DNA of 64,000 nt from assembly GCA_043228905.1 (NCBI GenBank), contig JBHGNT010000021.1, forward strand, positions 3,472,001-3,536,000. The letters run 5' to 3'. The notes under the pieces were generated by a model. It saw only the letters and a list, made by a program, of their open reading frames with translations, was not told where the DNA came from and did no database searches. Numbering within the stretch: the stretch's first letter is position 1; each line of letters begins with the position of its first letter. Origin of the DNA: Azolla caroliniana. Its lineage: Eukaryota; Plantae; Polypodiophyta. A program made the translations under genes and the position numbers. Positions 19,611 to 64,000 of the stretch are shown here, piece after piece.

Positions 19611-19922
19611 GCAGACATAAGTGGCATGATCGCACAGATACACGAGTTTTTTGGTATTTATGTAGTAACTCGATACAAAGGATTGAAGGCAGAGAAGGAG
19701 ATGAGGTGAAGCTTGAAGACCACATAAAAATGAAAAAGAGAAGACAAGACAAGTGGCAAGCAATGAGAACCTCATCCACACACACACACACACACACACA
19801 CAAAGAGTTGGTGGTTATGAAAATAAATAAACAGAACATTGAGAAACACTCTCTGAAAAGCCAAGGAGTGGGAAAAACAGAGTATACTCTGGTTATCTCT
19901 ACATCCCAAAGCCTCTCTGGCT

Positions 19923-28800: not shown

Positions 28801-30479
28801 CGAAATAATCTATGTCCAGATCCAATGCTAATGCCAGCAATCTCGTGATCGCCCGCCCAGCCTTTCTGCTTGCAATCCAACCGAAATTTCTTATTAAAAT
28901 CCTTGTATTCAACTAGAATCGAATGTAATCCAATCCAATCGAGAATGTTAGTTTTAACGATCCTTCCCCGGTTCTCCTGATTGATTCATTTCGGTCAATG
29001 ATTCATCGCGGAGGTTAATGATTTCATCACTCGATGATTTCATCACGGTTCTTAATGATTATTATTATTATTATTCATGGTTTAGGGTCGTTTATGATCG
29101 CTTCAAACCGATCGATTAATGTTCATCCAGTCCTTGATAATGAATAACAATTTATGATTATACATTAATCTGTCTATTTATCTATCTATATATATACACA
29201 CACAGAGAGAGGATGGATTTCTCACAGCATTTGCTCGTAATATTTTTCCATGGTTTCCCTCCATAATGGCAACAGATCTGTGCGGATAATTTTTTTTTTG
29301 TTAATACACAAACCAACTTAATTTAATACAATATTGTTCTGCTCCTATACCTATCCCTTCATTTCTAATCGACTCGACATTTCTGTTTTTTTGAATGAGT
29401 AAATTAATCCACTTGAGCTGTATGGTGCTTATTTTATGAGCGAAATTGGTTTAATCAACTGCTAAATTATCAATTAACTAACTGTTTAATCAGCTAGTTA
29501 TTTTTATTTATTTATTTATTTAATGAATCGGTTTTTTGTGTTGATCCTACCTGTGGGTGGCCATTGATTTGGTCCATGGAAAGCTTTCATTTCTTCTTCT
29601 TCTTCTTCTTCTTCTTCTCCCTGCTTTTTCTTCATTTCTGGCCCAATGTAGAATCCCTCTTTACAGTCACCTGGTTAGCATAATCCTAATATATATAAGT
29701 TACTACTTCTAATCAGTCAATTAACCATCCACAATTAGGCTAATCAATCCATTAAGTTAGGTCAATTAGCCTAAATAATCAATCTGCGAATTGCAGGCTT
29801 TGTCTAAATGTTGCATATGCACATGAGAAGGCGTGACGATAATCAAACAACAGGTATCAAGCTAATGACAGAAAATTAATTTGATACTAATGATTAATGA
29901 CAATTCGCATGACAATCAACTATAAAATTCAAAAGATTATATTAACAAGCTAATGACAGAAAACCAATTTGATACTAATGATGAATGACAACTCACAGGG
30001 AAATCAACTATAGAAATCAAAAGATTATATTAACAAGCTAATGACAGAAAATTAATCTGATATTAATGATGAATGACAAGTCACAGGAGAACCAACTATA
30101 GAAATCAAAAGATTATATTAACAAGCTAATGACAGAAAATTAATCTGATACTAATGATGAATGACAACTCACAGGTAAATCAGTTACAATAGAAATCAAA
30201 AGACTATATTAACAAGCTAATGACAGAAAACTAATTTGATACTAATGATCAATGATAACTCACAGGGAAATCAGTTACTATAGAAATCAAAAGATTTATA
30301 TTTCATGAAGGTAAAATGATTTGCCAACAAATTAAATATCGATAACATAATTGGGAATTGATAAGAATGCTAAGAACATAGATTGCAGGCAGTAACTTAA
30401 GGAATCATCAAAGAAAAAAGCCAGAGTACTAGAGATCATCATCATCACCACCATCATAATCACTGTCAACATCATCACG

Positions 30480-30525
<46 letters not shown>

Positions 30526-31875
30526 CCATCACCAGCATGAATCATCACTATCATCATGATTCATCACCATCATCATGATTCGTCAACATCATTGATCATG
30601 ATTCATCAACATCAACATGATTCATCAGCATCATTGATCATGATTCATCAGCATCATTGATCATGATTCATCAACATCATTGATCATGATTCATCACCAT
30701 CATTGATAATGATTCATCACCATCATCATGATTCATCGCCATCATTGATCATGATTCATCACCGTCATTGATCATGATTCATCACCATCATCATCATTGA
30801 TCATGGTCAGTGCACCAGTACCTTTGGTGACCTGAGTGGAAGGATCGAGCGTCTCGTCCTCGAACGGCGTGTATCCGCGGTAGTTCCTCTTGCCATCTCG
30901 GGCCACCTTCATCTTCTCGTGGGCCGGCAGCGCGAAGAACGCGCGGCTCTGCGCGAGCACCTCCTCCTCCACTGCAGCCTCCACACCATGATTGATCACA
31001 TAGAAAAATCCGCAGTCCATACATGCCTAGAGACGGAGCCAGACCAGACATAATTCGATCGATTAATGCATGCTGAGTGATGAACCTATCTCTACCAAGA
31101 TTTACAGAGTTTAATCCTTTAAGTGCTTCAATTTTTATTAATCACTACTTATGTTACTGTTAAGCATCAGATGCACCCAGCCAGGGAGCACAGTCCTATG
31201 TGCTCATTGGCCATTAATCCTCACAATATTCTGATTGGTATCCAAACCAAGAGTGCAAATTGGATAGATGACAATAAATATATAAGCTTAATTTTTGCTA
31301 CCACCATGGAATGAATGATTTAAGACAAAAGCAAGCAACAACAAATCATTGCAGACAATTATAATTTTCCAATCAAAAGACTTGATACTAAATCCACAAC
31401 AATGGAATGACAAATGATAGATGAGTGGATCAGAGGGAACCAATCAATATTGGCTACCACCATGGAATGAATGATTTAAGACTAACAACAACAACAACAA
31501 CAACAAATCATTGCAGACAATTATTTCCAATGAAAAGACAATACTAAATCCACAACAATGTAATAACAAATGATAGATGAATGGATGAGAGGGAGCCAAT
31601 CAATATTGGCTACTACCATTGGATGAATGATTTAAGACAAAAACAACAACAACAACAACAAATCATTGCAGACAATTATTTCCAATCAAAAGGCAACACT
31701 AAATCCACAACAATGTAATGACAAATGATAGATGAAGGCAGTGATAGATGAATGGATGAGAGGGAACCAATCAATATTGGATGTAATAAGGGTGGGGGAC
31801 CTGTTTGAGGATGGAGGCAGTGAGGTGGAGATCTGGGCAAGACAGGTCCACAAGGCTTATGGTCATGTTTGTCAT
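25883..31875 (-). CDS. 2OG-Fe(II) dioxygenase (resembles the Arabidopsis AT1G35190/AT4G16765 type), 326 aa, 11 exons
   Basis: Exons 31875-31801, 31026-30822, 29670-29551, 29277-29226, 28865-28744, 28573-28473, 28015-27957, 27540-27484, 26441-26396, 26301-26222 and 25946-25883 are all in phase. Motifs LKQACMDCGFFYVINHG, RGYTP, GPNQWP, GAHSDYG (HxD), STLHRV and ERYS. Confidence 0.92.
27115..27239. ncRNA. 125-nt intronic hairpin (candidate MIRNA precursor or mini inverted-repeat element)
   Basis: GATCTTGTAGTCACCTTGAA is perfectly complementary to TTCAAGGTGACTACAAGATC, and pairing continues about 30 bp further with bulges and wobbles. Confidence 0.45.
29855..30300. repeat. 88-90 bp tandem repeat x5 in dioxygenase intron 2
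   Basis: CAAGCTAATGACAGAAAA starts at 29858, 29946, 30034, 30122 and 30212. Confidence 0.95.
30435..30803. repeat. (ATC)n microsatellite and derived 23-bp minisatellite
   Basis: Pure ATC run at about 30480-30523, then ATTGATCATGATTCATCAGCATC units at 30633, 30656 and 30679. Confidence 0.95.
31297..31780. repeat. About 156-bp tandem repeat x3 in dioxygenase intron 1
   Basis: GCTACCACCATGGAATGAATGATTTAAGAC at about 31297, 31452 and 31609, with variable (AAC)n inside. Confidence 0.95.
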
Positions 31876-43139: not shown

Positions 43140-44192
43140 AGGATAGTAGCTTCAGTAAGTTTTTTGTAGATACAGGACTTTGGTGGTAGACAATGATATG
43201 GTGATGTGGTCATGGAAGCATTTCTATTTGGTAAGGATGAGTGATGATGTTGTAGATTTTTATGAGGGGATGAGGACAACACATTCACTCTAATTTTGTT
43301 TGTACAAGATTTTTGCGGTGAATGAACAGATGGTTGATGTGGAAAATGAAGCACATTTTATTTTTGTAAAGGATGAGTGACGATGGTATAGGGGGATGAA
43401 GCATAATTTCATGAGGGGATTAGGAGAGTAATCTCATTCTATTTTTGTAGGTACATGTCCTTGGTGGTATACATCGAGATGGTTGATGTGGTCATTGAAG
43501 CAAATTTGCATATTTCATTTTTTTAAGGATGAGTGAACCATGGACTTGGGCAGTAAACAAACAAACGATTGATGTGGAAAACGAAGAATATTGTCTATTT
43601 TGGTAAAGGATGGGTGACGATGGTGTCGGCTGAAGAAGCATAATTTCATGAGGGGATCAAGAGAGTAGTGTCACTATGTTTTTTGGTACAGGTTCTTGGT
43701 GGTATAAATCAAGATGGTTGATGTGGACATTTAAGAAAATTGTGTATTTTTTAAGGATGAGTGAATCATGGTGGTGTTGGGGGCTGACGCAGTGTTGGGG
43801 GCTAACACAATGTTTTTATGAGGGTATGAGGATAGCACATTCACTCTATTTTTGTTTGTACAGGACTTCAGTGGCAAACGAACAGACAATTGATATGGAA
43901 AACGAAGAACATTGTCTATTTTGGTAAAGGATGAGTGACGATGGTGTCGGTGGAAGAAGCGGAATTTCATGAGGGGATTGAGAGAGTAGTGTCATTATGT
44001 TTTTGTTTGGTATCTACAGGATTTGCTATGCTATGACGAGATGGTTGATGTGGACATTGGGGGTAATCGGCGACATGTTGGTTGGGGAAAAGGAAGCATA
44101 TTTTCTTTGTTTGATAAGGATGAGTGATAACGTTGTTGGGGGCTGAAGTAGACTTTCATGAGGGGACGAGGAAAATAGAAGCATTTTCTTTT
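43140..44192 (+). repeat. Satellite array (about 7 units, mostly 135-175 bp, alternating variants)
   Basis: GATGGTTGATGTGG-type cores at about 43196, 43330, 43478, 43568, 43713, 43889 and 44040. The last ~300 bp is colinear with 7710-8005. Confidence 0.9.
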
Positions 44193-44321
44193 GCATGTGA
44201 TTGTTGTATTTGACGAGGTATATTCTGAATTAATATATCCAGAAGTCTGCGATTCAGAACTTCAACGCAATGCAAGTACACACATGTTGAAGGAAACAAT
44301 TGTAGGGGCAGCAAGGAAAGT

Positions 44322-45330
44322 TTGGTATTTACAAATGCAACACCCAATGATTATGTTGTTTTTGTGCTTTTGAAAGCTTGTGCTAAGCTGAAAGTTGTGG
44401 AAAATGGCCAACAGATACATGCACATATTTGTGGGAATAGGGAAGTGGAAAGTAATGCTTTTTCTTTAATGGACATGTATTCAAAATGTGGTATGATAGA
44501 TCAAGTCAGAGATGTATTCGATAAGCTCTCAGTTCGTGATGTGGTGTCATGGAATGCATTAATAGCACGACATGGTCTTCATGATTGATATTAGGAAGTG
44601 TTGGAAGGTTTTGAGCATATGCAATGTCAAAGGATCATCCCAGATGAATAGTTGATGTCATGTTGGCTCATTTGAAAAAGCAAAAGAGGAGCAAGGTGAG
44701 GACGTGTTGATCAAGTCAAGAAGATGCAACTTTTGGAGATGAAGTCACATGTGCATGCATCTTGAAAGCTTGTGGGTGCATTAGATCCGCAAACAAGGGC
44801 AACGAGATACATTTCGATGCTGAGAGGAAAGGGCTTTTTCGAAAAAACCAACTTGCTTGAAATACACTAGTAGAGATGATTCGAAATGTGGCTTCCTAAC
44901 AAAAGCAAAGGCAGTGTTTGACAAACTTCCCATATGTGATACAGTGACATGGAATACATTGTTCATAGGTTATGTGCACTATGAGAATGACGAGGAGGCC
45001 CTTAATGCTTTTGAGCAGATGCAAAAGAAGAGAATCTCTTCTAATTCTATCACATTTGTAGGTACTCTAAAAGCTTGTGCTAGCATTGGAGCAATAGAAA
45101 AGGGTAGAGAAATGCATGTAAAGATCGAGGAGATGGGGAGGCTAAAGAGAAACCAGGTTGTTGGCAAAGCATTGCTTGATCTATATGCTAAGTGTGGAGT
45201 CTTAGAGAAAGCATTTGATATGCTTCCAACTCGAAATATAGTCTCTTGCAATGTTCTGATTACAGGATATCATCAAGTTGGAGAAATTGAAAATGTGTTT
45301 TTTGTATTTGACCAGATGAGAGGAAATTGA
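44322..45330 (+). pseudogene. PLS-class PPR pseudogene
   Basis: LLKACAKLK...GQQIHAHI, LMDMYSKCG...VFDKLSVRDVVSWNALI, VFDKLPICDTVTWNTL, ITFVGTLKACASIGAIEKG and ALLDLYAKCG, interrupted by stops and frameshifts. Confidence 0.9.
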
Positions 45331-46394
45331 GTTTTACCAAAGCCGGTTGGAAATGCTTGTAGTCATACAACCATGGTAGATAAAGGTCAAATATATTGTG
45401 AAGCCATGGTGATGAGCAATTATTACATATGCTGATGAGCATGTGAGAACGAAAGAATAATGACGTAGTATCTATCCACATATGGATACATGGATGAACA
45501 ATGAGAAACTACAATTTAGTGTTTAAGCTAATGATCACATGAGATGGAAAGAAGATTCTTGTATGTGTTCACCGTTCTTTGTAGTTTTATACTCTGAGTC
45601 TTTGAGTTATTTTTTTCTTTTTTATTGGCCTATCACGGTGTCGTGAAGAATTTCAGCCAGAGGCGGAAACCGGGAAATATTGGCTACATCGGTGGGGTGC
45701 ACCATGTGCACTCACCCTTGTGTAATTGTGTGAATAATAGGGGTTAAGTTGGGATGAAGAATCCCATGTAAATCGGGATTTATCCCACATTGTAATGCAT
45801 CCCTCTCCTTGTTCTATAAAAGGAAGGGATGGTCCCTTGTAGAAGGGTTGCCCGTTTTGTGTTAGAGGGTATACCATTAGGTTTAGAGTTAGTTTTCTTC
45901 TTCTTCTTCTTGGCGGGGAAGTCGACCGTTGAGGGCTGTCTCTGCTAGGTCTCCTGTGCAAGACCCCACTCCGCGTGACGAGCCTGAGAGCTCCCCGGAC
46001 GGCGGCTTGGCAACAGACTATTGCTGTAACCTACCTACCCTACCATGGTCCGGCTCGAAGCCGGGGTTGCATTCTTTCCCTTGTAATACTTACATTTGCG
46101 TTTGTCTGTGCATATTCGTGTCTCTGTTGGTGTCGGGCGCTTCCCCTTTCCTGCGTTTCCTGTACATAAGGGCGTGAGTCGGGTCGGCTTGTGTGTGTGT
46201 GTGTGTGTGCGCGCGCGAGTCGGTGTCAAGCGCGCGCTCCCTCTCTTTCTCTCTCTCCCTTTGGTTGCTTCCGGAGTGCTTCTGGGATGCCCCGGAAACG
46301 GTGAAGTACGACTTCCTACGCTCCGTGACTCCCTAGTCCAAGACCCCTGTGGTCCCGCCTTCCTCCACGCACGCGCGTAACAACGCGATATCTT

Positions 46395-46411
46395 TGGTGA
46401 ACCCGACGTGA
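46395..46411 (+). promoter_or_regulatory. Primer binding site, tRNA-Trp
   Basis: TGGTGAACCCGACGTGA is the complement of the plant cytosolic tRNA-Trp 3' end (UCACGUCGGGUUCACCA, from recall). Confidence 0.85.
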
Positions 46412-49400
46412 AAGGCAGCAAGGGAGGATGGAGTCGGAAGACGACGACCTCGCGGCGATGGTGGCCGAAGTGGTGTTGGAGTCAGCACGAGTGGTGATGA
46501 GGCGAGAAGCAGTGCAACAAGCGGTTGAGCGAGTGGTCGAAAGAGTCGGCCGTTTCAATGGGGACAAAGTCCCATCTTACTTGGAAGCCTACAACGCGGA
46601 AATGGAGGAGCGAGACGTGGACGAAGCGTTGAGGCTGGAATTCTTCTGTCGGGCTGTCGCCGTCCGTATGCACGCGTAAGTAAAGGAGCTCCGACAAGCT
46701 CATAGTTCGTGGGAGGCCTTTGAAGAGGCGCTCCTGCAGGCATATGGAGGACGGCGGAAGAGCCGGGGACGACACGACTTTGACTAGTGGGTCGCATTGG
46801 CAAAGACCCACCGGGGCTCGGCTCTCGGAGCGGGAACAAGGTTTGGTGGGGACGGACAAGGTCCTATTGTTCGTCAGGTCGATCGACCGAGCGGAACGGG
46901 AGGCCATCGGGATGGAGCTCGAAGATGATGACGGAGTAAATGGGCTTACGAAGGACTGGTCGAAGGTCGGAAGGGTGTGCCAACGGCTAGACGATGAGCG
47001 AGCCGAGAAGGCTAAGTGGAAGACGCGCGACGGCTTGCCATCATAGTGGGAAGAGGCCGAACGGCAAAGGGAGCTGGCAAGGGTCAACGTTGGGGCCAGG
47101 ATTGCGGAGGCGTACACAACTCTCGAGGCGATGCTCGAGGAAGAGGAAAGATCGAGGCCCCAAGCTGAGACCGAGGAGACGGTCTTGCCCCACGAGATGG
47201 CGGAAGATCGGTACCACGGTACCACGGGAGAGGGTGCGGAACAAAACGCCCTCTCGACTTGCGGAGAATTGCCAACCGAGGACAGGGTCGAGAGCGGAGA
47301 AGAACCCTCCACACGGATTCCGGAGACTTCGGCGGTCATGCCCGTGTGCCGTCATGAGGCCGGAGAGAAGGAAGGCGCCGACGAGGAGTCCTGGCACGAT
47401 GCCAACGAAGAGGGATGGGAAACGGCCTGCGAGGAGGCCAAGGATGGAGGCGGCATGGGAAGATCGACATTCCGATTCGGATGGAGCAGAATTCGGTCGT
47501 CGATCGTTCGATCGGGGCCGTATTCGGCATGAAAGTGCCGATACGGAAGAGGGTGCGGGACGAGCGGTCCTCTTTTACATGGGGAGAAAGACCGACCGGG
47601 CGAAGGTCGGGAATTGGAAGGGAAGTGGTCAAGGGTTCAGAACGAGTTCGGAGAGGTCGGCACCAGAACCGAAACTACGGATATTGGAGAACCAAGCCCA
47701 GGCGGGGCTTGGTTGATCACAAACCAGATGCTTCTCACCATACGTACTTGGGAGCAGTACCCCGAATGAGCGTCCGCAAATCGTTACGGGACGGAAGCCC
47801 CACGTCCTATCCGGAGACTTCGGTAGTTTGGCCGACGTGGCAACATGAGACCGAAAGAGATGGAGGATGGAGGCGAGAACGCGAAGAGGAGAGAAACGAC
47901 GAGTTCGGGAGAAGTACAAGGGATGAAGAGGAGAACGAAGACTGGTCCTACAGGATCCCCACACCAGTCCGGAGACCCCGGCAGTTCGGCCAACGTGGCA
48001 ATGTGAGACCTAGGGAGAAGGCTGGTGGCGACAAGAGAATGGGACCCAACAATCTGGAGAAGGACGAACGGACCCGGACGAGAACCGGGCGGAGCGGACT
48101 CCCGGATGACCATTCCGGGAGGGAGGAAGAGAGTAGGCCTACGAAGAGGCCGAGGAGACGGTACGTTAGTACCACGGGAGAGGGTGCGGAGTAAACCGCC
48201 CTCTCGGCATGCAAAGAAGGAAGACCCGGGATAAGGGTCAGAGATATGGCAAGCTCGAGGAGGATCCTTCACACCGGTTGTACAGAAACCGGCGGTCGGC
48301 CCGAGAGCCGATGCGAGGCCTAAAGTGACGAACAGTGGCGGCGAGGGGACGAAGGCAAAGGGCTACGGATGGGCGGTCTACGGAAATCCTCACACCGATC
48401 CGGCGGTCGGCCGGAGAGCCGGCTTGAGTCCTATAGGAAAGGACGATGGCGGCAGGTGAATGTGACCAACAGAAGAGAAAGGCGAAAGCAGAGTGGAGCA
48501 GCTGTGACCTTACACACACCGATTCTAGAGACTCCGGCAACCAACGACAAGAGGAGGAGTGAGACCTAGAGTAAGGGACGGTGGCGGCGGCAAGGCGGGA
48601 AACCGAAGCTAGAAGGGGAGGTCCCACGAAGACACTCACACCCATCCGGCGGTTGGCCCGAGTGCCAGCGTGAGTCCTATAGGGGAGATCAGTGGCGACA
48701 GGAGAACGTGATCGGACGACAGGAGGTGACGAATGGCAAGGAGGTATGAGGCCGACAAGGTGGCTACGGACCATCTCAAACCTTCCGGCGAGGTGAGTGG
48801 GCGTAAGGAAGTCCGGTCCTACGAGATCCCCACACTTAACCAGAGACTCCGGCAGTTCGGCCAACGAGGCAACATGAGACCGAGAGAGAAGGTTGGTGGC
48901 GGTGGGACACGGGACCTGACTACACGGAAGACACGAGGAGAGTCTGGGAGGGACTCAAACAAAAGACACCTGGATCTCGGCAAGCGACGAAACGATGACC
49001 GGTCCTATGGGACCCTCACACTGATCCGGAGACCCCGGCAGTTCGGCCAACATGGCAACGTGAGACCTGGGGAGAAGGATGGTGGCGGCAGGGAACGGGA
49101 CCCAACGACACGGGGTAGCGGATCGGGAGTCGGTAAGACGGGGCGGACGAAGTGCGAAACCCTCACCGGCCGGTTACGGTTTCGGAAGTTGCCGGTAGGG
49201 GCAAACATGGGAGGTGTGCTGGGCCGAAAAGGCACACCGGGGACGGAACAAGTGTCTTGCAAGTGGCCATCGTGGGCCGGATCGAAGCGTGACTACTGGA
49301 CGGTGTTCGGCACGGGCGGTGCCGAACAAAGGAAGCGGAAGACGGCACAAGGGAGGTGCCGGGAACGGGGTGACGGGTGCCTTGTGGACTGCACAGGGTC

Positions 49401-50444
49401 GGAGTCAGGGGATGACAAGAGAGGCCGGAGGAGGATCCTTCACGGTCGCTTCGTAGATCTCGGGAGCTCCATCGAAGTAACGAAGATTGACACGACAAGC
49501 CCGGGGTGACAAGCTGGTGGGGGTGAGGGGGACGACGGCAAGTGGGAAACTCAGGACCTGTTGCAACAACATGAGTGGTCGACGGAGGCCAAGCGGGCCA
49601 CTACGGGCATTCTCCAAGCGTAGGACATCGGGCATACGGCGGAGAACGGAGCGTGCATACGGCCGAACAAGGGCCAGTGGAAGTACGCATACTACGGAGA
49701 TCGCGGCGAAGGACCCATCGACGGGTCGAACGAGCCTACGGAGAGGTAAGCGCGAAGGGAGAACTGCAGCCGACGGTTCAAACTGGCACCGAGCCGGGAT
49801 GCGGATTACGGAAGACCGGTTTCTCACCGGCCGAAATCTCTCACCCTTCACCGGATATGGCACGTACTAGTGGACGTGCGGTTAGGTGGGGGCGGATGTC
49901 GTGAAGAATTTCGGCCAGAGGCGGAAACTGGGAAATATTGGCTACATCGGTGGGGTGCACCATGTGCACTCACCCTCGTGTAATTGTGTGAATAATAGGA
50001 GGGTTGTCTCTGCTAGGTCTCCTGTGCAAGACCCCGCTCCGCGTGACGAGCCCGAGAGCTCCCCAGACGGCGGCTTGGCAGCAAACTACTGCTGTAACCT
50101 ACCCTACCATGGTCCGGCTCGAAGCCGGGGTTGCATTCTTTCCCTTGTAATACTTACATTTGCGTCTGTCTGTGCATATTCGTGTCTCTGTTGGTGTCGG
50201 GCGCTTCCCCTTTCCTGTGTTTTCTGTACATAAGGGCGTGAGTCGGGTCGGCCTGTGTGTGTGTGTGTGTGTGTGTGCGCGTGAGTCGGTGTCAAGCGCG
50301 CGTTCCCTCTCTTTCTCTCTCTCCCCCTTCGGTTGCTTCCGGAGTGCTTCTGGGATGCCCCGGAAACGGTGAAGTACGACTTCCTACGCTCCGTCACTCC
50401 CTAGTCCAAGACCCCCGTGGTCCCGCCTTTCTCCATGCACGCGC

Positions 50445-51233
50445 TATCATGTTGTTACGCGCGCGCGTGGAGAAAAGCGGGACCACGTACGCCTCTGCAA
50501 TCCTGGCCTCAACGCCCCTTGCCAACTCCCTTTGTCGTTCGGCCTCTTCCCGCTGTGATAGCACGCCGTCGCGCTCCTTCCTCTTAGCCTTCTCGGCTCG
50601 CTCATCATTTAGCCGTTGGCACACCCTTCCGACCTTCGACCAGTCCTCCGTAAGCCCATTCGCTACATCATCGTCTTCGAGCTCAATCCCGATGGCTTCC
50701 CGTTCTGCTCGGTCGATCGACCTGACGAACAATAGGACTTTGTCCACCCCCACCAAACCTTGTTCCCGCTCCGGAAGCCGAGCAAGTCGTTGCTCGAACT
50801 CTCGGAACGCCTTGGTCGTGCCCTGGTGGGTCTTTGCCGATGCTACCCACTGGTCGAAGTCGTGTTGTCCCCGGCTCTTCCGCCGTCCTCCGTATGCCTT
50901 CAGGAACGCCTCTTCGAAGGCCTCCCACGAACTATGAGCCTCACGGAGCTCCTTTACTTCCGCATGCATCCGGACAGCTACAACCCGACAGACGAACTCC
51001 CGCCTCAACGCCTCGTCTATGCCACGCTCCTCCATATCCGCATTGTAGGCTCCCAAGTAAGATGGGACTTTGTCCCCGTTGAAACGACCGACTCTTTCGA
51101 CCACTCGCTCAACCGCTTGTTGCGCTGCTTCTCGCCTCATCACCACTCGTGCCGACTCCAACACCACTGGTGCACCCCGCCGATGTAGCCAATATTTCCC
51201 GGTTTCCGCCTCTGGCCGAAATTCTTCACGATA
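50445..51233 (-). mobile_element. 789-bp mini-element: LTR 5' tip, gag segment and LTR 3' tip, nested in LTR2 of A
   Basis: TSD GCGC at 50441-50444 and 51234-51237. About 66 bp of the LTR start is joined to gag (VLESARVVMRR...IAEAY), which is joined to about 42 bp of the LTR end. Termini are TA...TA. Confidence 0.85.
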
Positions 51234-52139
51234 GCGCGTAACAACGCGACAACGGCTACAACCTTTATAAGGTTGTTAGACTAATCATTTTGTCATGTAT
51301 GTGGAATTTCTACTAATGAAGAATATGTTTTTGGGAAAAAAAAAACTTTGTGCACCATACTCAAATTTTTGAGCTGAAAAATCTATTGCGACCATAGTAT
51401 GAACCATATGTACCATACGTACAATCATTCGAGTATGATAAACACCCAGAAGAATGGTAAATACCATACTTTTGGATTAACTATTTATTATGAGGTAAAT
51501 AAACCTAAAAAACGGAATTTTAAACAAAAAATAACCTTAAAAAAAGGGGGAAAAAAACTGAAGAATGTTTGAATAATATTTGCATTCGTTTTCCAACGTA
51601 GGAAAACGAATGTTATGCTAGATGAACACGAAGTTTACGGACTATGATTGTGACCTCAATCGATTATGACGGGATTATGACTCACTTTAGATAGTAGGCT
51701 TACCAAAACAATAATCCTTGTAAGTATTAAATTATTGTATCATATTCAAAGGTTTAAGAACTAATTTAGATCACGACTCCGTTACATGGAGTGGCCAAAC
51801 CAGTTCAACTTTGAAACTCCCAAATTGGTTAAATTTGCTTAATCGGTTTGGTTTGGACAAGAACAAACCGGTTAAGCTAAAATTGTACCATTGTTAGGGA
51901 GAGGGAGGGAGAGATTTTTATTAATATTTCTAAACCTTTTACAAAGGTTATTCTGACTCATTGTAACATATTCCTAGAGCTAAATCTTAAGCATATTTTC
52001 TTTTATTATAATTAGCACAAAAGGGCAATAGAAGCATGTGAAAGGAACCAAAACGGTTTCCAACTTGTAGAAAAGGGCAAGTGCTCTATTGTAAAAGCGG
52101 CCTTTGGGTGCCCTAACTTTGGGGCTACCTTTTGGCTAT

Positions 52140-53410
52140 CTACTTGGAAGTTTGCGAGGCGGTGGTTTGGGCCGTATGTGGTGACAAGCGCCAACGACAA
52201 TGCGGTATACCATCTAGCAAAGCTCGAGGGGACGAGGATCATGGTACCGGTTGTGGGTAAACAGATCAAAGCGTTTAAGAAGCGACACGAGTCGGAACCA
52301 GATCCGGAGGTGGAAGAAGAAGATGACGAGACTGAGGAGCCGGACGAGGACCTGATCGATGACGGATTGGAGGAGGAGGAGTAAGGAATGACCAGGAATC
52401 CTCACTGCTTCACTAGATCAACACATACTGAAGGATGTGCGGTTTGGTGGGGGTGGATGTCGTAAAGGATTCTGGCCATATGGGGAAAAACGGAGTCGGA
52501 TACATGTGAACGGGGGTGTACAAGGACGCACACAAATGAGTCCTTACATGCACATAAAACCTTAAAAATAACATAGGACTAATAAGTACTAGACAATGTG
52601 ATTTGGATGGGTACTTTAATGACCCACAAATTGAGAGGAATAAAAGTGTGTGATGGGAAAAAATTATGCAAAAGGATCTCTGACGAAAATGGTTGTCTTT
52701 ATGACTGATGTAACGACCTCTCCTTGAGCCATAAAGAGAGAGGACCAAGGGAGAAAAAGTGAGCCATTGACGGTTTTGGAGAACAAAGTGATGTCAGATT
52801 GAGCTCTGCAGGTTTCTAGCTTTTGTTCTGTCATTCCAATGAGCTTCCGCGATGCCTCTATTTGCGCTGGAAGCCCTTGTGCTCCTGATTAGAGGCTCAC
52901 TAGTGCCCGCGTGGGTGTGTTAAGAGCTCGAAGCTCTGTTACTAGCTGAGTCTGGGTGTATCTCCCTCTGTCTCAGTTTAATTGATTATCTCTGTTGTAC
53001 GCTGATTTCTCTGTGTCATTGTGTGAGTCTTTGTCTCTACTTGTATTCTTGTCTCTGTTCCCTCTCACCTATGTGTGTACTCGAGCATCTGAGCCCATGA
53101 GCTCATCGTTTTTACCCGGTGAGAGGTCCATAATTGTTTGGGTGTTAGGACAGTTTGAATGGCTAAGCATGTGTGCTCATCGCACCAGAATCCGACGTCA
53201 ATGTTGGAGCAGAGTGTGTGTCCAAGCCCATGTGTTGACCATCCGGTCTCTAGAGACGTTTTGGATTAGCTACGCGTCTTCGCCGCGTTTCAGTGAAGTT
53301 ATCCGGAAATGAGCCAGGTAGTCATTCTCTCCCACTTCTCTTATTGGTTCCTTCTTCCGAGACCCTGGTGGTCCCCCGGTGGTCCCGCTCTATTTCAACG
53401 TATACTCACA
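52140..53410 (+). mobile_element. 5'-truncated gypsy element C: integrase tail, PPT and LTR (52458 to about 53410)
   Basis: KFARRWFGPYVVTSANDNAVYHLAKLEG...KAFKKR, PPT GCGGTTTGGTGGGGGTGGA, then TGTCGTAAAG. Confidence 0.85.
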
Positions 53411-54067: not shown

Positions 54068-57055
54068 TGTCGTAGTATTCCGTGTGGATGTGTCGAAACG
54101 GGGCGGGACCACGAGGGTCTTGGACCAAGGAGCCGGTGTGAGTAGGAAGGTTGTCCAGATCAGTTAGCGATTACGAGTCTGGTCCGAACTAGTTCCCGGA
54201 TGTCGGACGGTGAGCACACACACTCGGGTACGCGTATTGTTCTTTACCGGGAGCCGGCTGGCAGCGATGAGCTCTTGGCGCCATGCAAACAGAAACACAA
54301 CACAATAGGGATAGACTAGAAACAAGAACACGGGAAATCCGAAACACACGGGGAGACTCAACAAACCAACGATTAACAAAGGAAATTGGAAGGATTACAA
54401 CCGACCGTGGCCGGCAAAAGAGCTTTGACCTCACTGTAAATACTCACACACACTAGCGGGTCTCCAATCGGGAGCACACAGGCTACCAGCTCGAAGCGGA
54501 GGCCTCGCAGTATGAGGATAGGGGAAACCGGAAAACGGGGAACAAGAAATAAGCCTACAGAGCTTGATCCAGAAGCACTTCGTCCTCCCAAAATGTGTAT
54601 ACCCAAACAATCTCAAACCTCCCCCTTTTATAGCACAAAAGGGAGACTATTACATCGTGATCAATGTCAGAGATTCTCCCCGATTTCTTCACATCAAATC
54701 CCCGTATCCTCTCTATCCGTGGGGGGTCTTTAAAGCCCCATTAAATCCTAATCCCTACTGCTTACTAGTCCTATGCTATTTACATATGTTTGTACATAAA
54801 GACTTAAATTTTGTGTGCATCTGTGCACACACCCGTTAATGCGCATCCAGCTCCGTTTCTTTCTATGGCCGGAATCATTCACGACATCCATCCCCACCAA
54901 ACCGCACATCCTCTGGTATGTGCCAATTAGTGTAGTTGTGGGGATTCCGGCGTAGCTTTCACTCGTCCTCTCCTGGATCGTCACTGATTAGGTCTTCTTC
55001 CAGCTCCTCGCTCTCACTCCCGCCTTCTCCCGGCTCTAGATATGGTTCTGGCTCGTACTGCTTCTTGAAGGCCTTTATCCGCTTCCCCACCACCGGTACC
55101 GCAATCCTCGTCCCGTCAAGCTCGACAAGATGGTATGTCGCATTGTCATTGGAGGTTGTCACCACGTACAACCCGAATCACGTCCTCGCAAACTTCCGGG
55201 TCGATTGGTGCTGGTTACAAGGTTGTTGTTGTAGACCAACACCCAATCGTCCTCTTTGATCTTCTCCGGCCGGAGTCGGTGTGTTCGGTCGAACCGGCCC
55301 TTGTTCTTCTTCCATGCCTCTTCTATCATTGCCGTCGCTCGTCCCACGTCCTCCGGCCTTTGCTCGAGCTGTTGAATTCATGCCGCAAGCAACTCTTCCC
55401 GGCTCACCTCTCCCGACCAGTTGACCGCCAACCACAAAGAAATCGTCCTCTGCACTGGCATGATCGGCTTCTGTCCGAACATCAGCTCAGTCGACATGTA
55501 TCCCGTCACCGAAATGTGCGTAGTTCGGTCAGCCCATAAAGCGTAAGGCAGTAGTCTCGCCCAGTCCATTGCATGCCCTCACTAATGCTTTCACAATTGG
55601 TCCGTGTCTATGCTTGATCTTCCCATTGGCTTCTGGATTGTATGTCGTTGTGAGGGACAACTTGACCCCTAGCCTGTCAAACAACTCTTCGGCTTCTTGC
55701 GCATCTAGCTCCCCTTGGTCGGCCACGATCCTACTCACACACCCATACCGGCAAATCACATCTTCGATCAGGAACCGACATACGGCTGCGGTTGTCTTGT
55801 TCGTAAATGCTCAGCCCTTCACCTGATTCGTGAGGTCTTCTCTCGCAAGCACTAGGTACTGTATCTTTCCTACACCCATCGACATTGTTACTAAATCGAC
55901 CATCTACTTGAAGTGTATGGCTGGCGGGTAGGTCGGGTGTAGCTCGTCGCGGTGCCGGATACCGGAATGCATTTGACAGCTTTTGCATGTTGCCACGAAA
56001 TGATGCGTGTCGCGATACATTCCAGCCACCAATACTTCTCCTTCAATTTCTCGAATGTGGCCCATGTTCCCCGGTGTCCGGACCAAGGGCCCTCATGGAA
56101 TTCTGATAGGAGCACCGCTTGCTCTTCTTTCTTCGTCACCACCCAGAGTGGTGTGCCAGTTCGTCTCTTTAGGTGTTCCATATCTTACCGTTGTCGAGAT
56201 ATTACGCAAGTGCGTGTGAAAATGAGGCGGGACCGCGGGGGTCTCGAACCAAAGAGCAAGCAAGGGAGGAGAAAGAGAGAGAACCGGCTACGCAGGACCG
56301 GGGATACGCAGGGACACGGCCCTTCAGCACGGAGAACGCGAACAGACACCGACACAGACAGATGCGAATGACTAAATATGTGTATTAACAAAAATGGCTA
56401 ACACGACTACAACCCTCGATGGGGCACAGGTTGGTTACAACCGAACAGGCCGGCGAACAGATGCCGATGCCTGTTCGCTTCGACGCACAAACGGGGTAGC
56501 AGGTCGGAGGTGCTGCCGGAAGCACTCGGCGTTCCTCGAAACAGCGCGAGCCTCCTCGGAACCCTGCACAGGAGCTATGGAGCTCGAGAAGGAAGGAAAC
56601 ACAGAGAGAGAGAGAGAGAAGCGTCCAGAAACGGTCCGGCAGCACTTCGTCCTCTCCGCCCGAGATCCCTGCAACAGCTCTTTCCTGCTCCTTATATAGG
56701 CCGACGAGCAGGCCGTCATGTCAGCTTTATTCCCTGTCCCTTTTGGACAGGGATCCGCTCCGTTTTTCACGCATCCGCGTAGTTACGCCGCCGACTCGTA
56801 CAGTTCGCGCGCGCGACCGAAAAGACTGTTCGCGCAGTCTTTGTCTCCACTTGAGTTAGGGCCCGTTCCTGCCGATTATCCTCCTAATTCGCTTCTATGT
56901 ACAACTTGGAGCGTGCGCGCGTGAAGAACCGGTTCCCACGCCTTGGTGCGCCGATTCCGCCTATGGACGGTTTTCTTCACGACATCCGCCCCTACCTAAC
57001 CGCGCATCCTCCGGTATGCGCCAAGAGAGTTGGGACGGAGAAAACCGGCCCGTCT

Positions 57056-60000
57056 TCATTCCTCGCCCGTCGGTTCTTCCTCGTTTCCGGATCGTTCGTC
57101 ACTGCTGACTAGGAGAGCCGGGTCCGGCTCGTCGTCATGTCGCTTCTTGAACGCTTTGATCCGCTTCCCTGCAACCGGTATCGCCACTCTCGTGCCGTCA
57201 AGTTCCGCCAGGTGATATGTCCCGTTGTCATTGGCGCTCCGTACCACGTAAGGCCCGAACCACCTTCGTGCAAACTTCCGTGTAGCCCGGTGCTGGTTGT
57301 CGAGGCTGCTATCGTAGACGAGCACCCAGTCACCTTCTTCGATTTTCTTCGGTCGGAGCCGGTGCGTTCGGTCGAACCTGGCTTTGTTCTTCTTCCTCGC
57401 CACCCGGAGCCTCTCCGCAGCCAGTTCCACGTCCTCCGGTCTCCGCTCGAGCTGTCGTATACGCGCGGCCAACAACTCCTCCCGGCTCATCTCGTCCCTC
57501 CAGTCGACCGTTGCCCACGAGGAGATCGTCCGTTCCATCGGCATGATCGGCTTCTGGCCGAACATGAGCTCCGTCGGCATGTACCCGGTTACCGAACTGT
57601 GCGTGGTCCGGTCTGCCCACAAAGCATAAGGTAGCAGCCGCGGCCAGTTACCGACTTGGCCTCCGCATGCCCGAACCAACGCCTTGACGATCGGTCCGTG
57701 TCCGCGCTCCACCTTTCCATTCGCCTCCGGATTGTACGCAGTGGTGAGCGAGAGCTTGACTCCCAGCCGGTCGAACAGCTCCGCGGCTTCTTCGGCGTCC
57801 AACTCCCCTCGGTCAGCCACGATCTTCCCGACGCACCCGTACCGGCATATCACGTCCTCAATTAGGAACCGGCATACGGCCGCGGTCGTTTTGTTCGGAA
57901 GGGCCCGGCCTTCCACCTGGTTCGTCAGATCCTCCCGCGCTAGGACCAGGTACCGCATTTGTCCCACTCCCATTGGCATCGTTACCAGATCTACCATCCA
58001 TTTGAAATGGATGGCCGGAGGGTACGTAGGGTGAAGCTCGTCTCGATGTCGGACTATGGAGTGCATCTGGCAGCTCTCGCAAGTTGTCACGAACTGATGC
58101 ACGTCCTGGTACTGCCCCGGCCACCAATACTTCCCCTTCAGTTTCTCAAACGTAGCCCAAGTTCCACGGTGTCCAGCCCAAGGGCTGTCGTGGTAGGCCG
58201 TCAGCAGCTCCTCCTGTTCTTCCTTCATCGCCACCACCCGGAGCGGAGCGCCGTCCCTCTTCTTCGGGTGCTTCCATAGATAGCCATCCCGGAGGAAGAA
58301 CCGGTACGCTTTCTTCCGGATCCGGTTGGCCTCGTCCTTCGTCCATGACGCATCGGGCGTCATTGTTTTCAAAAACCCACCGATCTGCAGCCACTCCCCG
58401 TCGTACTTGCTCGCGTCGAAGTCGTTGAGCGCCGGAGTGCTTGTTCCGCCGGTTGTTACATACGCAGTCTCGAAAAAGTCCACGCCGACCTCTTCGTCCT
58501 CCGAGACCATGCCGCCCTCGTCATCGAATCTCGCCCTTGAAAGCATGTCGGCCATGGCGTTGTCTTTCCCGGAAATGTGTCGTATTACCGGGTCTAGGGA
58601 CTTGATGTACGCTATCCACCTGAGCATTGCCAGGTCCGGCGTCGCGCATCCGGAAACCATGCCGAGAATCGGCATGCAATCCGTCTCTATGATTACCTCC
58701 GTCCCGATCAGATAGTCCTTGTCGGCCTTCACCGCCGAAACGATACCCCAGAGTTCGCGTTCGCTGAGGACCTTCGCGCCGAATCGGATCGGAAACCGAT
58801 TGCCGTCCTCGTCTTCTTGGTTGACGACCCACCCGATTCCGGTCGGACTCGTGTCAACCGTCACGTACACTGGGGCGCCCTTCCTGTAGACGGCCTTTCG
58901 GAGCGCCGGTGCTGCCGAAAGAGCCTCCTTCAGCTTCCGGACCGACTCCGTGTGCTTGTCTAGCCACTCGAATCTTCGCCCTTTTCTCAATAATCCGTAT
59001 AACGGCTCCGCAACGTGGGCGTAATGCGGGATCCATATGTGGTAGAATGCGCATGCCCCCAGGAATCTTCGTACTTCCGTGACCGAGCTGCAGTCGGGCT
59101 TCATCGCGGAGATGGCTTCCACCTTTGCCGGAGACGGTTTCCGGCCATATGGCCCACATAAGTGTCCGACCACCATGATTTCCGACTGCCCGAAGGCTGA
59201 TTTCTCCCCCGAGAAGGTGAGTCTCGCATCCTCTAGCCTTTGCAGCACCTTCTCGCAGTCGTCGATGTGCGTCGCCACGAATCGCCGGCATCCGTCCGGC
59301 CCGATCGTCTCGTCCTTTTCTTCCACCGGGCATCCCTTGATCGGGATGTCGTCCAGAAACGGCATGGTGATGTCCGGGATACAGTCCCTCAGAACCTTGT
59401 TCATCGCATTCACCATGTGGGCCACCGAGTTGGTCCCTCCTTGCGGCAGTGTACACATCCGAACTAGGCCGAGGGGAGTTCGCATCGTCGTAATGTCTCT
59501 GCTCTCCACGGCTAGCTGGAACTGGTCGTACCCTGAGTATAGATCCCCGACCGAGTAAATTGACCTTCCGGCGAAGGCCTCCGCGAACTCGTCTGTGGTC
59601 GGTCCGATCCCTGCGTTCCGAATGGTCACTCGATTGACCGGCTGCAGGTCCTGGATGAAGCGCAACGAACCGTTTTTCTTCGGTACGGTAAACCATCGAT
59701 TCGAATATGGGGCGCTCGACGGCTCGAGAATTCCCATATCAACTTTCTGCCTCAGCAGCTCCATCAACTTCGGGATGTGAGCTCTCGGAACCGGGATTGG
59801 CTTGAGATTCCACGGTACATGCGGTACCGTGAATATCACCATTGGCTCCACGATCGTCGGGTCAACGCACCCGATTTCCTCCGGCGAGAATGCGAAGGCT
59901 TTCCCGTGCCTTCCGAGCATTCTCCGAAACCGGTCTTCCTCCGCCGGCAGTAGGAACCCGCCCCCACCGATTTTGAGCTCTCGGAGCGTCTCGTCGGTGA

Positions 60001-60523
60001 AGGTGTGTCCTATGCAGGCCGGATCTCGTAGACTAGGGTCCGATGCAACCCCTTTGATTCTCGACGCGCTGTCCTCCGGTAAGGGTGCCGCGACTGGCCT
60101 TACCTTCCGGTCCACAGTCTTGTACTTGGTGCTTACGTGGGCCGTCCGAACTGACTCGAGCCCTCGACCGAAGTCCGCGATGACTCCGTACATCTCCTCG
60201 GAACACACCGGTATCGTCCGGTCTTCGTTAAGGCCTTCTTCGACTACCTTTCCCAGCATTCCCAAGGTGTCGTCGAATGAGACCGCCTCCACGGCTCCGT
60301 TGATTTCCTCGTCGGGGCCGAGAACTCCGCACGCTCGAAGTCTCCCCTCCGCCTTTGTCTTCTCTCGGCCGCCGATGCCGACTATCGTACACGCTCCGCT
60401 GTCGGAGAAGCAAAATACCCTACCTGTCGTACACGGTTTTATCGTACAGATGTGGGGTTTTCCCGGAGCATCCGGACTGTCGCGGCCCCACGCCTTGGCA
60501 GCCCTCTCTAAAAATCCTCTCGG
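57056..60523 (-). CDS. pol: Pol (RT-RNase H-integrase) of element B, -1 frame, no ATG of its own near the start
   Basis: The frame is open from 60523. RT: DLYSGYDQ, LPQGGTNS, FLDD. RNase H: VDTS, ELWG, ETDC, ADMLSR. Integrase: H-H-C-C, D-D-E and GPY. Confidence 0.93.
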   Translation of the reverse strand, partial: PRGFLERAAKAWGRDSPDAPGKPHICTIKPCTTGRVFCFSDSGACTIVGIGGREKTKAEGRLRACGVLGPDEEINGAVEAVSFDDTLGMLGKVVEEGLNEDRTIPVCSEEMYGVIADFGRGLESVRTAHVSTKYKTVDRKVRPVAAPLPEDSASRIKGVASDPSLRDPACIGHTFTDETLRELKIGGGGFLLPAEEDRFRRMLGRHGKAFAFSPEEIGCVDPTIVEPMVIFTVPHVPWNLKPIPVPRAHIPKLMELLRQKVDMGILEPSSAPYSNRWFTVPKKNGSLRFIQDLQPVNRVTIRNAGIGPTTDEFAEAFAGRSIYSVGDLYSGYDQFQLAVESRDITTMRTPLGLVRMCTLPQGGTNSVAHMVNAMNKVLRDCIPDITMPFLDDIPIKGCPVEEKDETIGPDGCRRFVATHIDDCEKVLQRLEDARLTFSGEKSAFGQSEIMVVGHLCGPYGRKPSPAKVEAISAMKPDCSSVTEVRRFLGACAFYHIWIPHYAHVAEPLYGLLRKGRRFEWLDKHTESVRKLKEALSAAPALRKAVYRKGAPVYVTVDTSPTGIGWVVNQEDEDGNRFPIRFGAKVLSERELWGIVSAVKADKDYLIGTEVIIETDCMPILGMVSGCATPDLAMLRWIAYIKSLDPVIRHISGKDNAMADMLSRARFDDEGGMVSEDEEVGVDFFETAYVTTGGTSTPALNDFDASKYDGEWLQIGGFLKTMTPDASWTKDEANRIRKKAYRFFLRDGYLWKHPKKRDGAPLRVVAMKEEQEELLTAYHDSPWAGHRGTWATFEKLKGKYWWPGQYQDVHQFVTTCESCQMHSIVRHRDELHPTYPPAIHFKWMVDLVTMPMGVGQMRYLVLAREDLTNQVEGRALPNKTTAAVCRFLIEDVICRYGCVGKIVADRGELDAEEAAELFDRLGVKLSLTTAYNPEANGKVERGHGPIVKALVRACGGQVGNWPRLLPYALWADRTTHSSVTGYMPTELMFGQKPIMPMERTISSWATVDWRDEMSREELLAARIRQLERRPEDVELAAERLRVARKKNKARFDRTHRLRPKKIEEGDWVLVYDSSLDNQHRATRKFARRWFGPYVVRSANDNGTYHLAELDGTRVAIPVAGKRIKAFKKRHDDEPDPALLVSSDERSGNEEEPTGEE
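60452..60517 (-). promoter_or_regulatory. Predicted -1 ribosomal frameshift signal
   Basis: G-GAT-TTT (60517-60511), then spacer TAGAGA, then a pseudoknot with stems GGGCTG/CAGTCC and GTGGGG/CCCCAC. Confidence 0.75.
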
Positions 60524-62634
60524 TTATCGGAACCGAGGGAGTCGCGGTTACGCTCGTGGTTCGGCCTAACCGTCAAAAACTGGACCGAATGGCGCCCGTC
60601 CTGGCTCTTGACCCGCGCATAGGCCGAACCATTGTCCAGCACCTTGGTCTCCATTCGCGCCGCCGTGATGTACGGCTCTCCCAGTATGACCGGATGCGAA
60701 GACGTCTCCTGCACGAAGAAGTGCTGGTCAATCTCGACGTCGCCGATCTTGACTCGCACATTCGGACAGGCCCCGTGCAGTTCCTCGGTGGCGCGCGTTG
60801 CTGCCCTTATTTTCCACCCGTGCTTGGTGTTGATCGGCCATTTGCCCTTCTTATAGAAGTCCATGGACATCAAATTGATCTCCGATCCGTGGTCTACCAA
60901 AGCTATCACCGGTTCCTGGACATCGCCGATCTTCACCGGGGTTTCCGTGGTCGCTCGGGCCCAGTGCGGTCTCGAATAGTGGCTTTCCGCCCACTCGTCT
61001 CCCAGCGCCATGTCGTCTAGGTGCGTCGTCCGCACTTCCACCGGTCTTTCCGGTTCTGTCTCCGTTGACAGCCTCTTCCGTTTCACCAAGTCCACGATGG
61101 AGTCGTGGAACTCCTTCTTGGCGATTCCCAGCACCTCCCGTAGCGACAGCTCCACCTTGCTGTCGAGGATCCGTTCCTCCAGGACCTTTCGTAAGTCCGT
61201 GGTTCTTTCTATCTCCGTCCCCAGACGGTACCCGCCCTTCTGGGGTTTATCTTGCGTACCGGCCCCGCCGGCTTCGTCCCGTCGTGGCCCGGACCGGGTC
61301 TTGTATCGTTGTGAGGGCCCGGTCGTCCCGGGTTTCCCCACCCGCTTCTCTTCTACCAGAGCCTCGTAGTTCCGGCAAGCGGCTTCCACGAAGCCCGTCT
61401 TTTCCTCGACCGGGTCGCTCCACCCGGTCATCTCCCGTACCCGTTTCTCCGCATGGTCCGATTCCTCCCTCTTCATCCTCGTATCGGCAAGGCCTTCCAG
61501 CACCGTCGGCCAGAATCCGGCTTTGCTTTCCCTTCGGGCCTCGTTGCCCCCGACTCGAATACCGGCCGACGCCGAGTAGTGGACGGTTTCCGCATGTCGG
61601 GCCGCCGCCTCTTCCATCAACCTCTTCATTCCGCCTCACCCGTCGTTTCGGTTTAGGGCCCTTCTCGTGTCGTTGGCGTGAACCCGGCCTTCCCATAGGT
61701 ATACCACCCGGTTCCTCAGCGCCTCTGCGAAATCGCCGCAGTCCTTCCGAATGTGGCCGACTTCATCGCACCACATGCACCTGTTTCCTGCCGCCGGCCG
61801 TCGGTCACGAGCCGGTTCGCCTCCTTCCCTTCGGGCCTGCGCGATTTGGAGGTCCTTTATCGCCTTCGTCAATTCCTCCAGCGCCGCTCCTCCGGTTGAG
61901 CCTCTGACTACGCCGGTCGAAGCCGAACCGGTATCCAACCACTCTCGGGTCTCTTCCTTTCGCACCTGTGGCGCTGGTTCGAGCTTCCTTGCTGCGACCG
62001 AGCCCGACCCGGTTGCACCGTTATCCGCCCATTCTCGCCGTTTGTCGAAACGGCCACAGACCTTCCTGACAGCCGCCCAGTCGGTAGTGAGCCCGTCTTC
62101 GGTTTCCAGCAAGAGGCCCACGTGCTCCCGATCCCGTTCGTCGACCGACTTGACAAACAGCAAGACCCGGCTCGTGTCCAGGATGGTTCGGTCGAGCGCC
62201 GAAAGGCGCGCAAAGTTTTCCTCGAACTCCCGGAGGAGCGCCGACGCGTTTCTTCCCTTCCCCGGGGACTCCACCCATTCCATGAACCTTCGCTTCGAAA
62301 GCCGGAGCGCGTCGTCTAGCCCGTATTTCTCTAGGAGCCGACCTTCGAACTCCTCCCAGGTACGGCTCTCCGTCCGCACCTCGAGCACCTCCGCATGGAT
62401 GCTCGGCATCGCCACTCGCGGAAATCCGGCAAGACGCCTTTCTTCCGGAATGTCCCGCATCAACATTTCTGCACCGTAGGACGCCAGATACTTCGTGGCA
62501 TCCCTCCCATCGAACCGGCCGATCGTGCCGACGACCGCCTCAATAGCTCTGTCGAGGGCACCGGTGCCCTCGCGCGCGTTTACAATCCGATCCACGGCCG
62601 AAGCCATGGCCTCTGCGAGATCCGACCCCCTCAT
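60508..62634 (-). pseudogene. gag: Gag-protease frame of element B, interrupted by one in-frame TGA (61638-61636)
   Basis: ORFs 61636-62661 and 60508-61629 share a frame. CCHC knuckle CMWCDEVGHIRKDC. Aspartic protease ALVDHGSEINL...VILGEPY. Confidence 0.88.
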
Positions 62635-64000
62635 CTTCTGCTCTTCTGCCGCCTCTTTCACGTCGGGTTCACCAAATATGTCGAGATATTACGCAAGTGC
62701 GTGTGAAAATGAGGCGGGACCGCGGGGGTCTCGAACCAAAGAGCAAGCAAGGGAGGAGAAAGAGAGAGAACCGGCTACGCAGGACCGGGGATACGCAGGG
62801 ACACGGCCCTTCAGCACGGAGAACGCGAACAGACACCGACACAGACAGATGCGAATGACTAAATATGTGTATTAACAAAAATGGCTAACACGACTACAAC
62901 CCTCGATGGGGCACAGGTTGGTTACAACCGAACAGGCCGGCGAACAGATGCCGATGCCTGTTCGCTTCGACGCACAAACGGGGTAGCAGGTCGGAGGTGC
63001 TGCCGGAAGCACTCGGCGTTCCTCGAAACAGCGCGAGCCTCCTCGGAACCCTGCACAGGAGCTATGGAGCTCGAGAAGGAAGGAAACACAGAGAGAGAGA
63101 GAGAGAAGCGTCCAGAAACGGTCCGGCAGCACTTCGTCCTCTCCGCCCGAGATCCCTGCAACAGCTCTTTCCTGCTCCTTATATAGGCCGACGAGCAGGC
63201 CGTCATGTCAGCTTTATTCCCTGTCCCTTTTGGACAGGGATCCGCTCCGTTTTTCACGCATCCGCGTAGTTACGCCGCCGACTCGTACAGTTCGCGCGCG
63301 CGACCGAAAAGACTGTTCGCGCGGTCTTTGTCTCCACTTGAGTTAGGGCCCGTTCCTGCCGATTATCCTCCTAATTCGCTTCTATGTACAACTTGGAGCG
63401 TGCGCGCGTGAAGAACCGGTTCCCACGCCTTGGTGCGCCGATTCCGCCTATGGACGGTTTTCTTCACGACACCGTTTCGTAGGAAGAACCGGTATGCCTT
63501 CTTTCGGATCCGGCTTGCTTCGTCTTTCGTCCATGTCGCATCCGGCCCCAACATGCTTAGGAACTTACCAATCTGGAGCCACTGCCTGTCGTAATCGTTC
63601 CCATCGAACTCGTTCAAGATCAAAGTGCTCCACTTTTTTGCCGACATTCGAGCCGACTCGAAGAAGTCCACGCCGACCTCTTCGTCTTCCGACACCATGC
63701 CATCCTAGTTCTCGAACCGTGCTCTTGAGAGCATATCAGCCATGGTGTTGTCCTTTCTGGGGATGTGTCATATCTCCGGCTTCAGGGCCTTGATGTACGT
63801 GATCCACCGAAGCATCGCCAGGGCCGTAGATGCACATCCGGAAATCAAACTGAGAACCGGTAGGAAATTTGTCTCGATTATCACTTCTGTCCGGATCATG
63901 TAGGCTTTATTGTCCTTTACCGCCGAAAGGATACCCTAGAGTTCGTGGTTAACCTGGGTGTATCCTCGTTGCCGCTCGCTTAGCACCTTCGCACCGAACC

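Follow-up and report, generated by a model that had tools for sequence, protein, structure and literature searches.

Conserved slippery heptamer and predicted pseudoknot behind the protease likely program a -1 frameshift into pol in Phygy-like Ty3/gypsy retrotransposons

In Phygy-like Ty3/gypsy retrotransposons, the gag-protease frame ends at a slippery heptamer that is followed by a 6-nt spacer and a predicted H-type pseudoknot, and this conserved combination very probably directs ribosomes into pol by a programmed -1 frameshift. The reading is based on sequence comparison; a programmed shift is likely in the family because the two-frame layout, the heptamer and the spacer are maintained, stem 1 covaries and stem 2 persists. 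The copy from which the analysis started lies in a 64,000-nucleotide stretch of Azolla caroliniana DNA (contig JBHGNT010000021.1, positions 3,472,001 to 3,536,000), referred to here as the window. Its junction combines an in-frame heptamer, a downstream open reading frame in the -1 frame, a spacer within the 5-9 nt range and a predicted 3' structure, as expected for a programmed -1 signal.

The minus strand of the window (63471..56192) carries a 7,280-bp LTR retrotransposon that is assigned to Ty3/gypsy by its domain order gag-protease-reverse transcriptase (RT)-RNase H-integrase, its LTRs and its target-site duplication (TSD; Table 1). The element is young, its LTRs differing at 1 of 793 bases. 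The coding region fills the internal part and leaves no extra ORF, and a Pfam scan (E 0.01) of the element detected neither a chromodomain nor an archaeal-type/second RNase H. The primer-binding site may match tRNA-Trp; a scan for the primer tRNA gave only chance matches, in viral contigs, and a search of viral contigs for relatives of the element found none. The best named protein matches were from Physcomitrium patens, with further ones from Riccia and Adiantum, which makes a seed-free land plant the likely host.

Table 1. Features of the retrotransposon and of its protease/pol junction in the window copy
Feature	Position in window	Strand	Basis or remark
Target-site duplication CCGT, 4 bp	56188..56191, second copy 63472-63475	.	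matches NCGN preference of Phygy
5' LTR, 793 bp, TG...CA	62679..63471	-	1 mismatch to 3' LTR
Primer-binding site starting TGG, directly behind 5' LTR	62659..62674	-	PBS-like tract
Gag-protease frame	60511..62634	-	first ATG 62634
CCHC knuckle in gag	61779-61738	-	sequence
In-frame TGA inside gag	61636..61638	-	private to window copy
Protease motif DHG	60894-60886	-	sequence
TAA preceding -1 frame	60526-60524	-	followed by two open codons before heptamer
Pol in -1 frame: linker, RT, RNase H, integrase	57056..60523	-	frame listing and Pfam
Slippery heptamer G GAU UUU (Asp-Phe in gag frame)	60511..60517	-	GGATTTT
Gag-protease stop TAG	60510-60508	-	directly behind heptamer
6-nt spacer TAGAGA (UAG plus 3 nt)	60505..60510	-	6 nt in 29/29 non-variant representatives
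Stem 1, 5' arm, 8 nt (begins GGGCTG from 60504)	60497..60504	-	alignment of representatives
Stem 2, 5' arm GTGGGG, in stem 1 loop	60486..60491	-	alignment and per-sequence register
Stem 1, 3' arm (CAGTCC ends 60474)	60474..60481	-	alignment of representatives
Alternative hairpin CCGGA/TCCGG	60475-60463	-	sequence
Stem 2, 3' arm CCCCAC	60452..60457	-	per-sequence register
Purine-rich tract before 3' LTR, likely PPT	56985..57000	-	sequence
3' LTR, 793 bp	56192..56984	-	LTR comparison

The element is inserted into an older, decayed relative of about 74% identity (55043-56191 and 63472-64000, minus strand), which it splits inside the integrase region; the junction of this relative lies outside the window. 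Related elements whose gag has decayed and that gave no pol match were found at 46033-50281 (plus strand), where a 185-nt repeat pair (97%) bounds a G+C-rich internal part, and at 50394-51275 (minus strand), a second gag remnant in the opposite orientation; both are possibly non-autonomous derivatives. The 3' end of another relative (integrase tail and PPT region) is present at 52016-52480 (plus strand), an open frame resembling, by eye, a pentatricopeptide-repeat fragment at 44824-45330 (plus strand), and minisatellite-like and dispersed repeat arrays at 19127-19622, 29855-30833, 4146-4534 and 43290-44193.

The gag frame contains a DUF4100 domain (Pfam scan). Because the region around the DHG motif gave weak Pfam matches to aspartyl proteases (Asp_protease_2/gag-asp_proteas) and its predicted model (mean pLDDT 56) resembles Ddi1/retroviral protease folds with E 1.6e-5, we place the protease upstream of the frame break; searching PDB sequences with the alignment of the protease returned one chance match (E 0.5). 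A preliminary description of this DNA had considered the DHG motif atypical; the motif is indeed present, but it is the normal one of the family (125 of 132 motif matches). That description also lacked the in-frame TGA of gag (61638-61636). Programmed readthrough of this TGA was rejected and the stop regarded as a private lesion, because all 66 relatives aligned across the site are open there. Since it would keep ribosomes from reaching the junction, the signal in the window copy is probably an inherited, idle example. Many related loci combine about 700 open gag-protease codons with about 1150 open codons in the -1 frame.

At the junction, the gag-protease frame ends with GAG GAT TTT TAG as originally described. 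The -1 frame, said to open two codons before the heptamer and to stay open through RT, RNase H and integrase, does so for 1155 codons (60523..57059). The heptamer, the 6-nt spacer and the two interleaved stems were also confirmed, with the correction that stem 1 has 8 bp instead of 6. The alternative CCGGA/UCCGG hairpin exists in the sequence, but it is formed in only 3 of 31 representatives and was therefore rejected as a functional part and considered incidental. Taken alone, the window copy gives weak evidence for a structure: stem 1 has one C-A mismatch among its 8 bp, the folding z-score (ViennaRNA) is -0.12 and not significant, and the pseudoknot score was reached by 4 of 100 shuffles and by 5 of 48 other windows. 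It is the comparison across the family that lifts the structure above chance.

Related stretches were taken from the best 80 of 200 scan matches, 76 of these 80 coming from one series of assemblies; three stop short of the junction, leaving 77 loci for the counts. A slippery heptamer (G GAU UUY, G GGU UUU or G GUU UUY), counted if it was in frame with gag and no more than 8 codons from the stop, was found in 70 of the 77 loci among these best 80 of 200. In 64 of them G GAU UUY directly precedes the stop and in two the stop follows five codons later; G GGU UUU or G GUU UUY occurs at 5 loci, minus the overlap with the other classes. The seven loci without a heptamer are truncated, chimeric or decayed, and three of them still show the site in the DNA. 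Pol occupied the -1 frame at 61 of the 77 loci (best 80 of 200), the remaining heptamer loci comprising four without a pol match, one that is cut short, two decayed ones with a downstream break and two variants treated below. One contig (L047:1692-1760) holds two junction copies, one with an altered heptamer. Other copies in which a single open frame spans protease and RT, which the preliminary description had named as the sign of a private 1-nt indel, were not encountered at any of the 77 junction loci (best 80 of 200), and the two-frame layout persists down to 53% protease identity. Four DNA runs with three organism labels contributed 6505 contigs at the junction; the variants listed for them include no indel, and their depth was maximal over 60482-60523. 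Low-depth joints in the DNA contigs (8-47 versus 10^4-10^5) were regarded as other copies.

For the analysis of the RNA signal, redundant and decayed members were removed by eye from the 70 heptamer loci until 30 were left; these were aligned together with the window copy using MAFFT, which gave an almost gap-free alignment of 31 representatives. The conservation and covariation proposed earlier as a check were borne out for the heptamer, the spacer and both stems. The 8 bp of stem 1 were 97.2% paired, with both sides changed at 6 of 8 pairs. Controls in which the whole structure was slid along the alignment were 38-48% paired. The structure contained 44 two-sided cells versus 14.0 ± 3.5 in shuffles (reached in 0 of 500), cells that are not independent events given the single assembly series behind 76 of the 80 loci and the probable relatedness of the hosts. 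On the protease tree, as many as 10 changes of pair type are counted for a single pair; the covariation thus does not reflect one inherited event, even though the sequences are still related. Stem 2, whose register shifts with loop 3, was 79% paired at one fixed register; with the register chosen for each sequence, a fitted count, its core positions were paired in 31, 31, 31 and 30 of the 31 representatives. The pseudoknot score, fitted like the stem 2 registers after inspection of the data, exceeded all 100 shuffles in 24 of 31 representatives. At the heptamer, G precedes GAT at all 26 Asp-Phe sites and TTT is used in 24, compared with a background joint frequency of 0.075. Apart from the variant pair, all 29 representatives have a 6-nt spacer, and the identity of the stop was free (TAA 12, TAG 11, TGA 6). 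A search of Rfam gave nothing above chance at the site, and it holds no such family.

According to the proposed mechanism, most ribosomes would terminate at the stop that follows G GAU UUU, setting free Gag-protease (about 700 amino acids in intact relatives). A minority would pause at the pseudoknot, where tRNA-Asp and tRNA-Phe would slip one base back (GAU UUU to GGA UUU), and reading would continue from ...E-D-F with L-E-R-A-A-K... to yield Gag-protease-RT-RNase H-integrase. The adjacent stop may additionally stimulate the slip, as for the pea enation mosaic virus heptamer (Atkins et al. 2016, PMC5009743). The protease would then be made in step with Gag, and RT and integrase at a fixed low ratio. 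The poor re-pairing of tRNA-Asp on GGA speaks against the -1 model.

The ends of related proteins support the -1 reading. A C-terminal anchor was located in 131 of 179 related proteins; 66 terminate with D/N/E-F, 25 with F-x-x-x-P-L/F, 2 with V-F-x and 18 otherwise. Entries from Physcomitrium, Riccia and Adiantum are among those with D/N/E-F or F-x-x-x-P-L/F endings, seen as protein ends alone. The F-x-x-x-P-L ending (P. patens, Adiantum) corresponds to coding of the stem 1 5' arm with the stop inside the stem, an arrangement seen in DNA at L057, L070, L071 and L076. The other 20 anchored proteins run on past the end; gene models from named genomes account for 18. In an alternative reading, an intron at the junction is spliced in some transcripts, joining protease to RT, and the fold regulates splicing or packaging. 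Twelve gene models of named genomes join the protease to pol motifs and real splicing is possible there, with Ogre as a precedent (Neumann et al. 2019, PMC6317226); the joins, however, vary from model to model, which suggests introns introduced by gene finders. Moreover, donor-like sites near the junction were present in only 5 of 29 representatives and at differing positions, all 29 keep the -1 frame open over the heptamer with no non-coding gap, and none of 343 reads from three polyA runs of a related species (about 12% of each run, strand unclear) contained a joint. Splicing is accordingly a very improbable explanation. Many 'predicted proteins' with DUF4100 from P. patens, Adiantum and Riccia (P0037-P0177, named genomes) represent the gag-protease of the family, and several models that bridge the junction with differing introns are probably annotation artefacts.

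We give equally little weight to synthesis of pol by re-initiation or internal initiation, with the fold serving initiation or dimerisation/packaging and not frameshifting. Although conservation of an RNA structure does not by itself imply action on ribosomes, and the variant pair has pol-frame AUGs 5 and 8 codons upstream, the first pol-frame Met lies between 1 and 109 codons downstream in the 29 others (84 in the window copy), and a fixed heptamer at a fixed 6-nt distance would be left unexplained.

Still less probable is that a single-ORF element suffered a 1-nt indel, private or at a hot spot, with stems arising by chance or from protein constraint. T-runs are indel hot spots, and the window copy does have a private stop in gag; the absence of fused frames at the 77 loci, the persistence of the layout to 53% protease identity, the lack of a listed indel in four DNA runs and two-sided base changes across codon positions argue against it. 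Transcriptional slippage, in which RNA polymerase would add a base on the U-run, is equally improbable: the run has 5 T when the stop follows the heptamer, several relatives (L057, L058, L070) have just 3-4 T, no inserted base was listed at the site in RNA reads (about 40 deep overall), and a pseudoknot at a fixed downstream distance is a mark of ribosomal shifting.

A programmed -1 shift is thus the preferred reading for the family; two loci depart from it in frame. L046 (2834-2900) and L062 (2496-2560) carry AG GUU UUU, a 5-nt spacer and a strong copy of the same pseudoknot, and their pol lies in the +1/-2 frame, with open stretches of 1160 and 1106 codons, respectively. They are sisters (support 1.0 and 0.997) with 80% identical pol DNA, and a dS of about 1.16 with a dN/dS of 0.09 indicates purifying selection. 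The gag-protease frame is open for 761 codons in L062 and has a stop within gag in L046; the pol-frame AUGs just upstream of the site are at L046:2820 and L062:2491. P0021, a protein from a separate contig with 4 differences in 200 residues to L062, shares the end Q-V-F-Y, and this end, seen apart from its pol frame, speaks against an assembly slip. A search for further members by the pol N-terminus gave one protein, which does not span the junction. At a third locus, L075, UG GUU UUC with a 6-nt spacer precedes pol in the -1 frame.

Both variant loci thus have the +1/-2 downstream ORF, an RG_GUU_UUU site that allows re-pairing after a -2 slip and the shorter spacer, where spacer length and frame count as one observation because the pseudoknot keeps its phase in pol. 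AG_GUU_UUU is the -2 site of PRRSV (Hill and Brierley 2023, PMC7618472), which shares the complete octamer with L046/L062, and spacers shortened by 1-2 nt promote -2 shifting (Lin et al. 2012, PMC3458567), in line with the 1-nt difference between the variant pair and the -1 members. For PRRSV nsp2TF, -2 shifting needs nsp1-beta/PCBP and has no RNA structure (PMC7618472), whereas in L046/L062 the pseudoknot is the putative stimulator. We therefore incline, by a small margin over even chances, to the view that one conserved pseudoknot directs -1 shifting in most Phygy lineages and -2 shifting in L046/L062, a long-lived lineage that would have changed over through AG GUU UUU and the spacer one base shorter; a +1 slip, use of the nearby AUGs or independent T-run losses are possible alternatives for these two DNA loci. 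If true, this would be a retrotransposon's -2 frameshift that depends on RNA alone, and evolution would have put the spacer-tension model to the test. With this pair, natural sequences sharing one stimulator would allow a test of the laboratory rule that shortening the spacer favours -2.

For the family as a whole, a covarying signal of 60 nt shared by moss, liverwort and fern elements would close the gap of -1 signals in plant LTR elements, explain many mis-predicted DUF4100 gene models and provide a plant-native frameshift reporter. A search of openly accessible literature found no report of Phygy frameshifting or of a plant LTR -1 pseudoknot. Pseudoknot-driven -1 shifting is textbook knowledge for viruses and animal retroelements. 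A similar layout is that of the alpharetroviruses, in which the protease is encoded in the gag frame and a -1 shift with a downstream structure leads into RT-integrase; these viruses differ from the element in heptamer and structure and belong to an unrelated lineage, and the element has no env.

Among plant elements, Phygy is a non-chromovirus Ty3/gypsy lineage with a 4-bp NCGN TSD and no extra domains; the survey of Neumann et al. (2019, PMC6317226) gives it as specific to P. patens, with a length of 7,656-9,968 bp and ORF organisation not determined. The element resembles Phygy in its CCGT TSD, in having no chromodomain, extra RNase H or extra ORF, and in its nearest named proteins, which are from P. 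patens; it deviates with its 7,280 bp, below a range that is descriptive and taken from one species, and with relatives in Riccia and Adiantum. On these sequence features it is probably Phygy, the TSD being judged from one insertion; we keep the assignment at 'Phygy-like' because the length falls below the listed range. The preliminary statement that most plant gypsy elements have a single ORF or a break before the protease needs correction, as breaks behind the protease are common in the same survey: its supplement gives GAG-PROT:stop:RT for 49% of Retand and a spacer/intron after the protease for Ogre (PMC6317226). These plant non-chromoviruses share the protease/RT break with the element, but Retand has a single in-frame stop and Ogre a spliced spacer, and both possess an extra RNase H; the lineage table lists an overlapping-frame break after the protease for no lineage (PMC6317226). 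A 2003 survey, as cited by Atkins et al. (2016, PMC5009743), counted two plant LTR types with separate frames, both +1.

The heptamer itself has a viral counterpart. G_GAU_UUU is a working -1 site in pea enation mosaic virus, its G_GA being a known exception to the XXX type among slippery sites (PMC5009743). The G_GAU_UUU sites of umbraviruses and dianthoviruses agree with the element in heptamer type and in the stop close behind; they differ in their stimulator, a bulged stem-loop with long-range pairing about 4 kb away, where the element has a compact, local, predicted H-type pseudoknot (PMC5009743).
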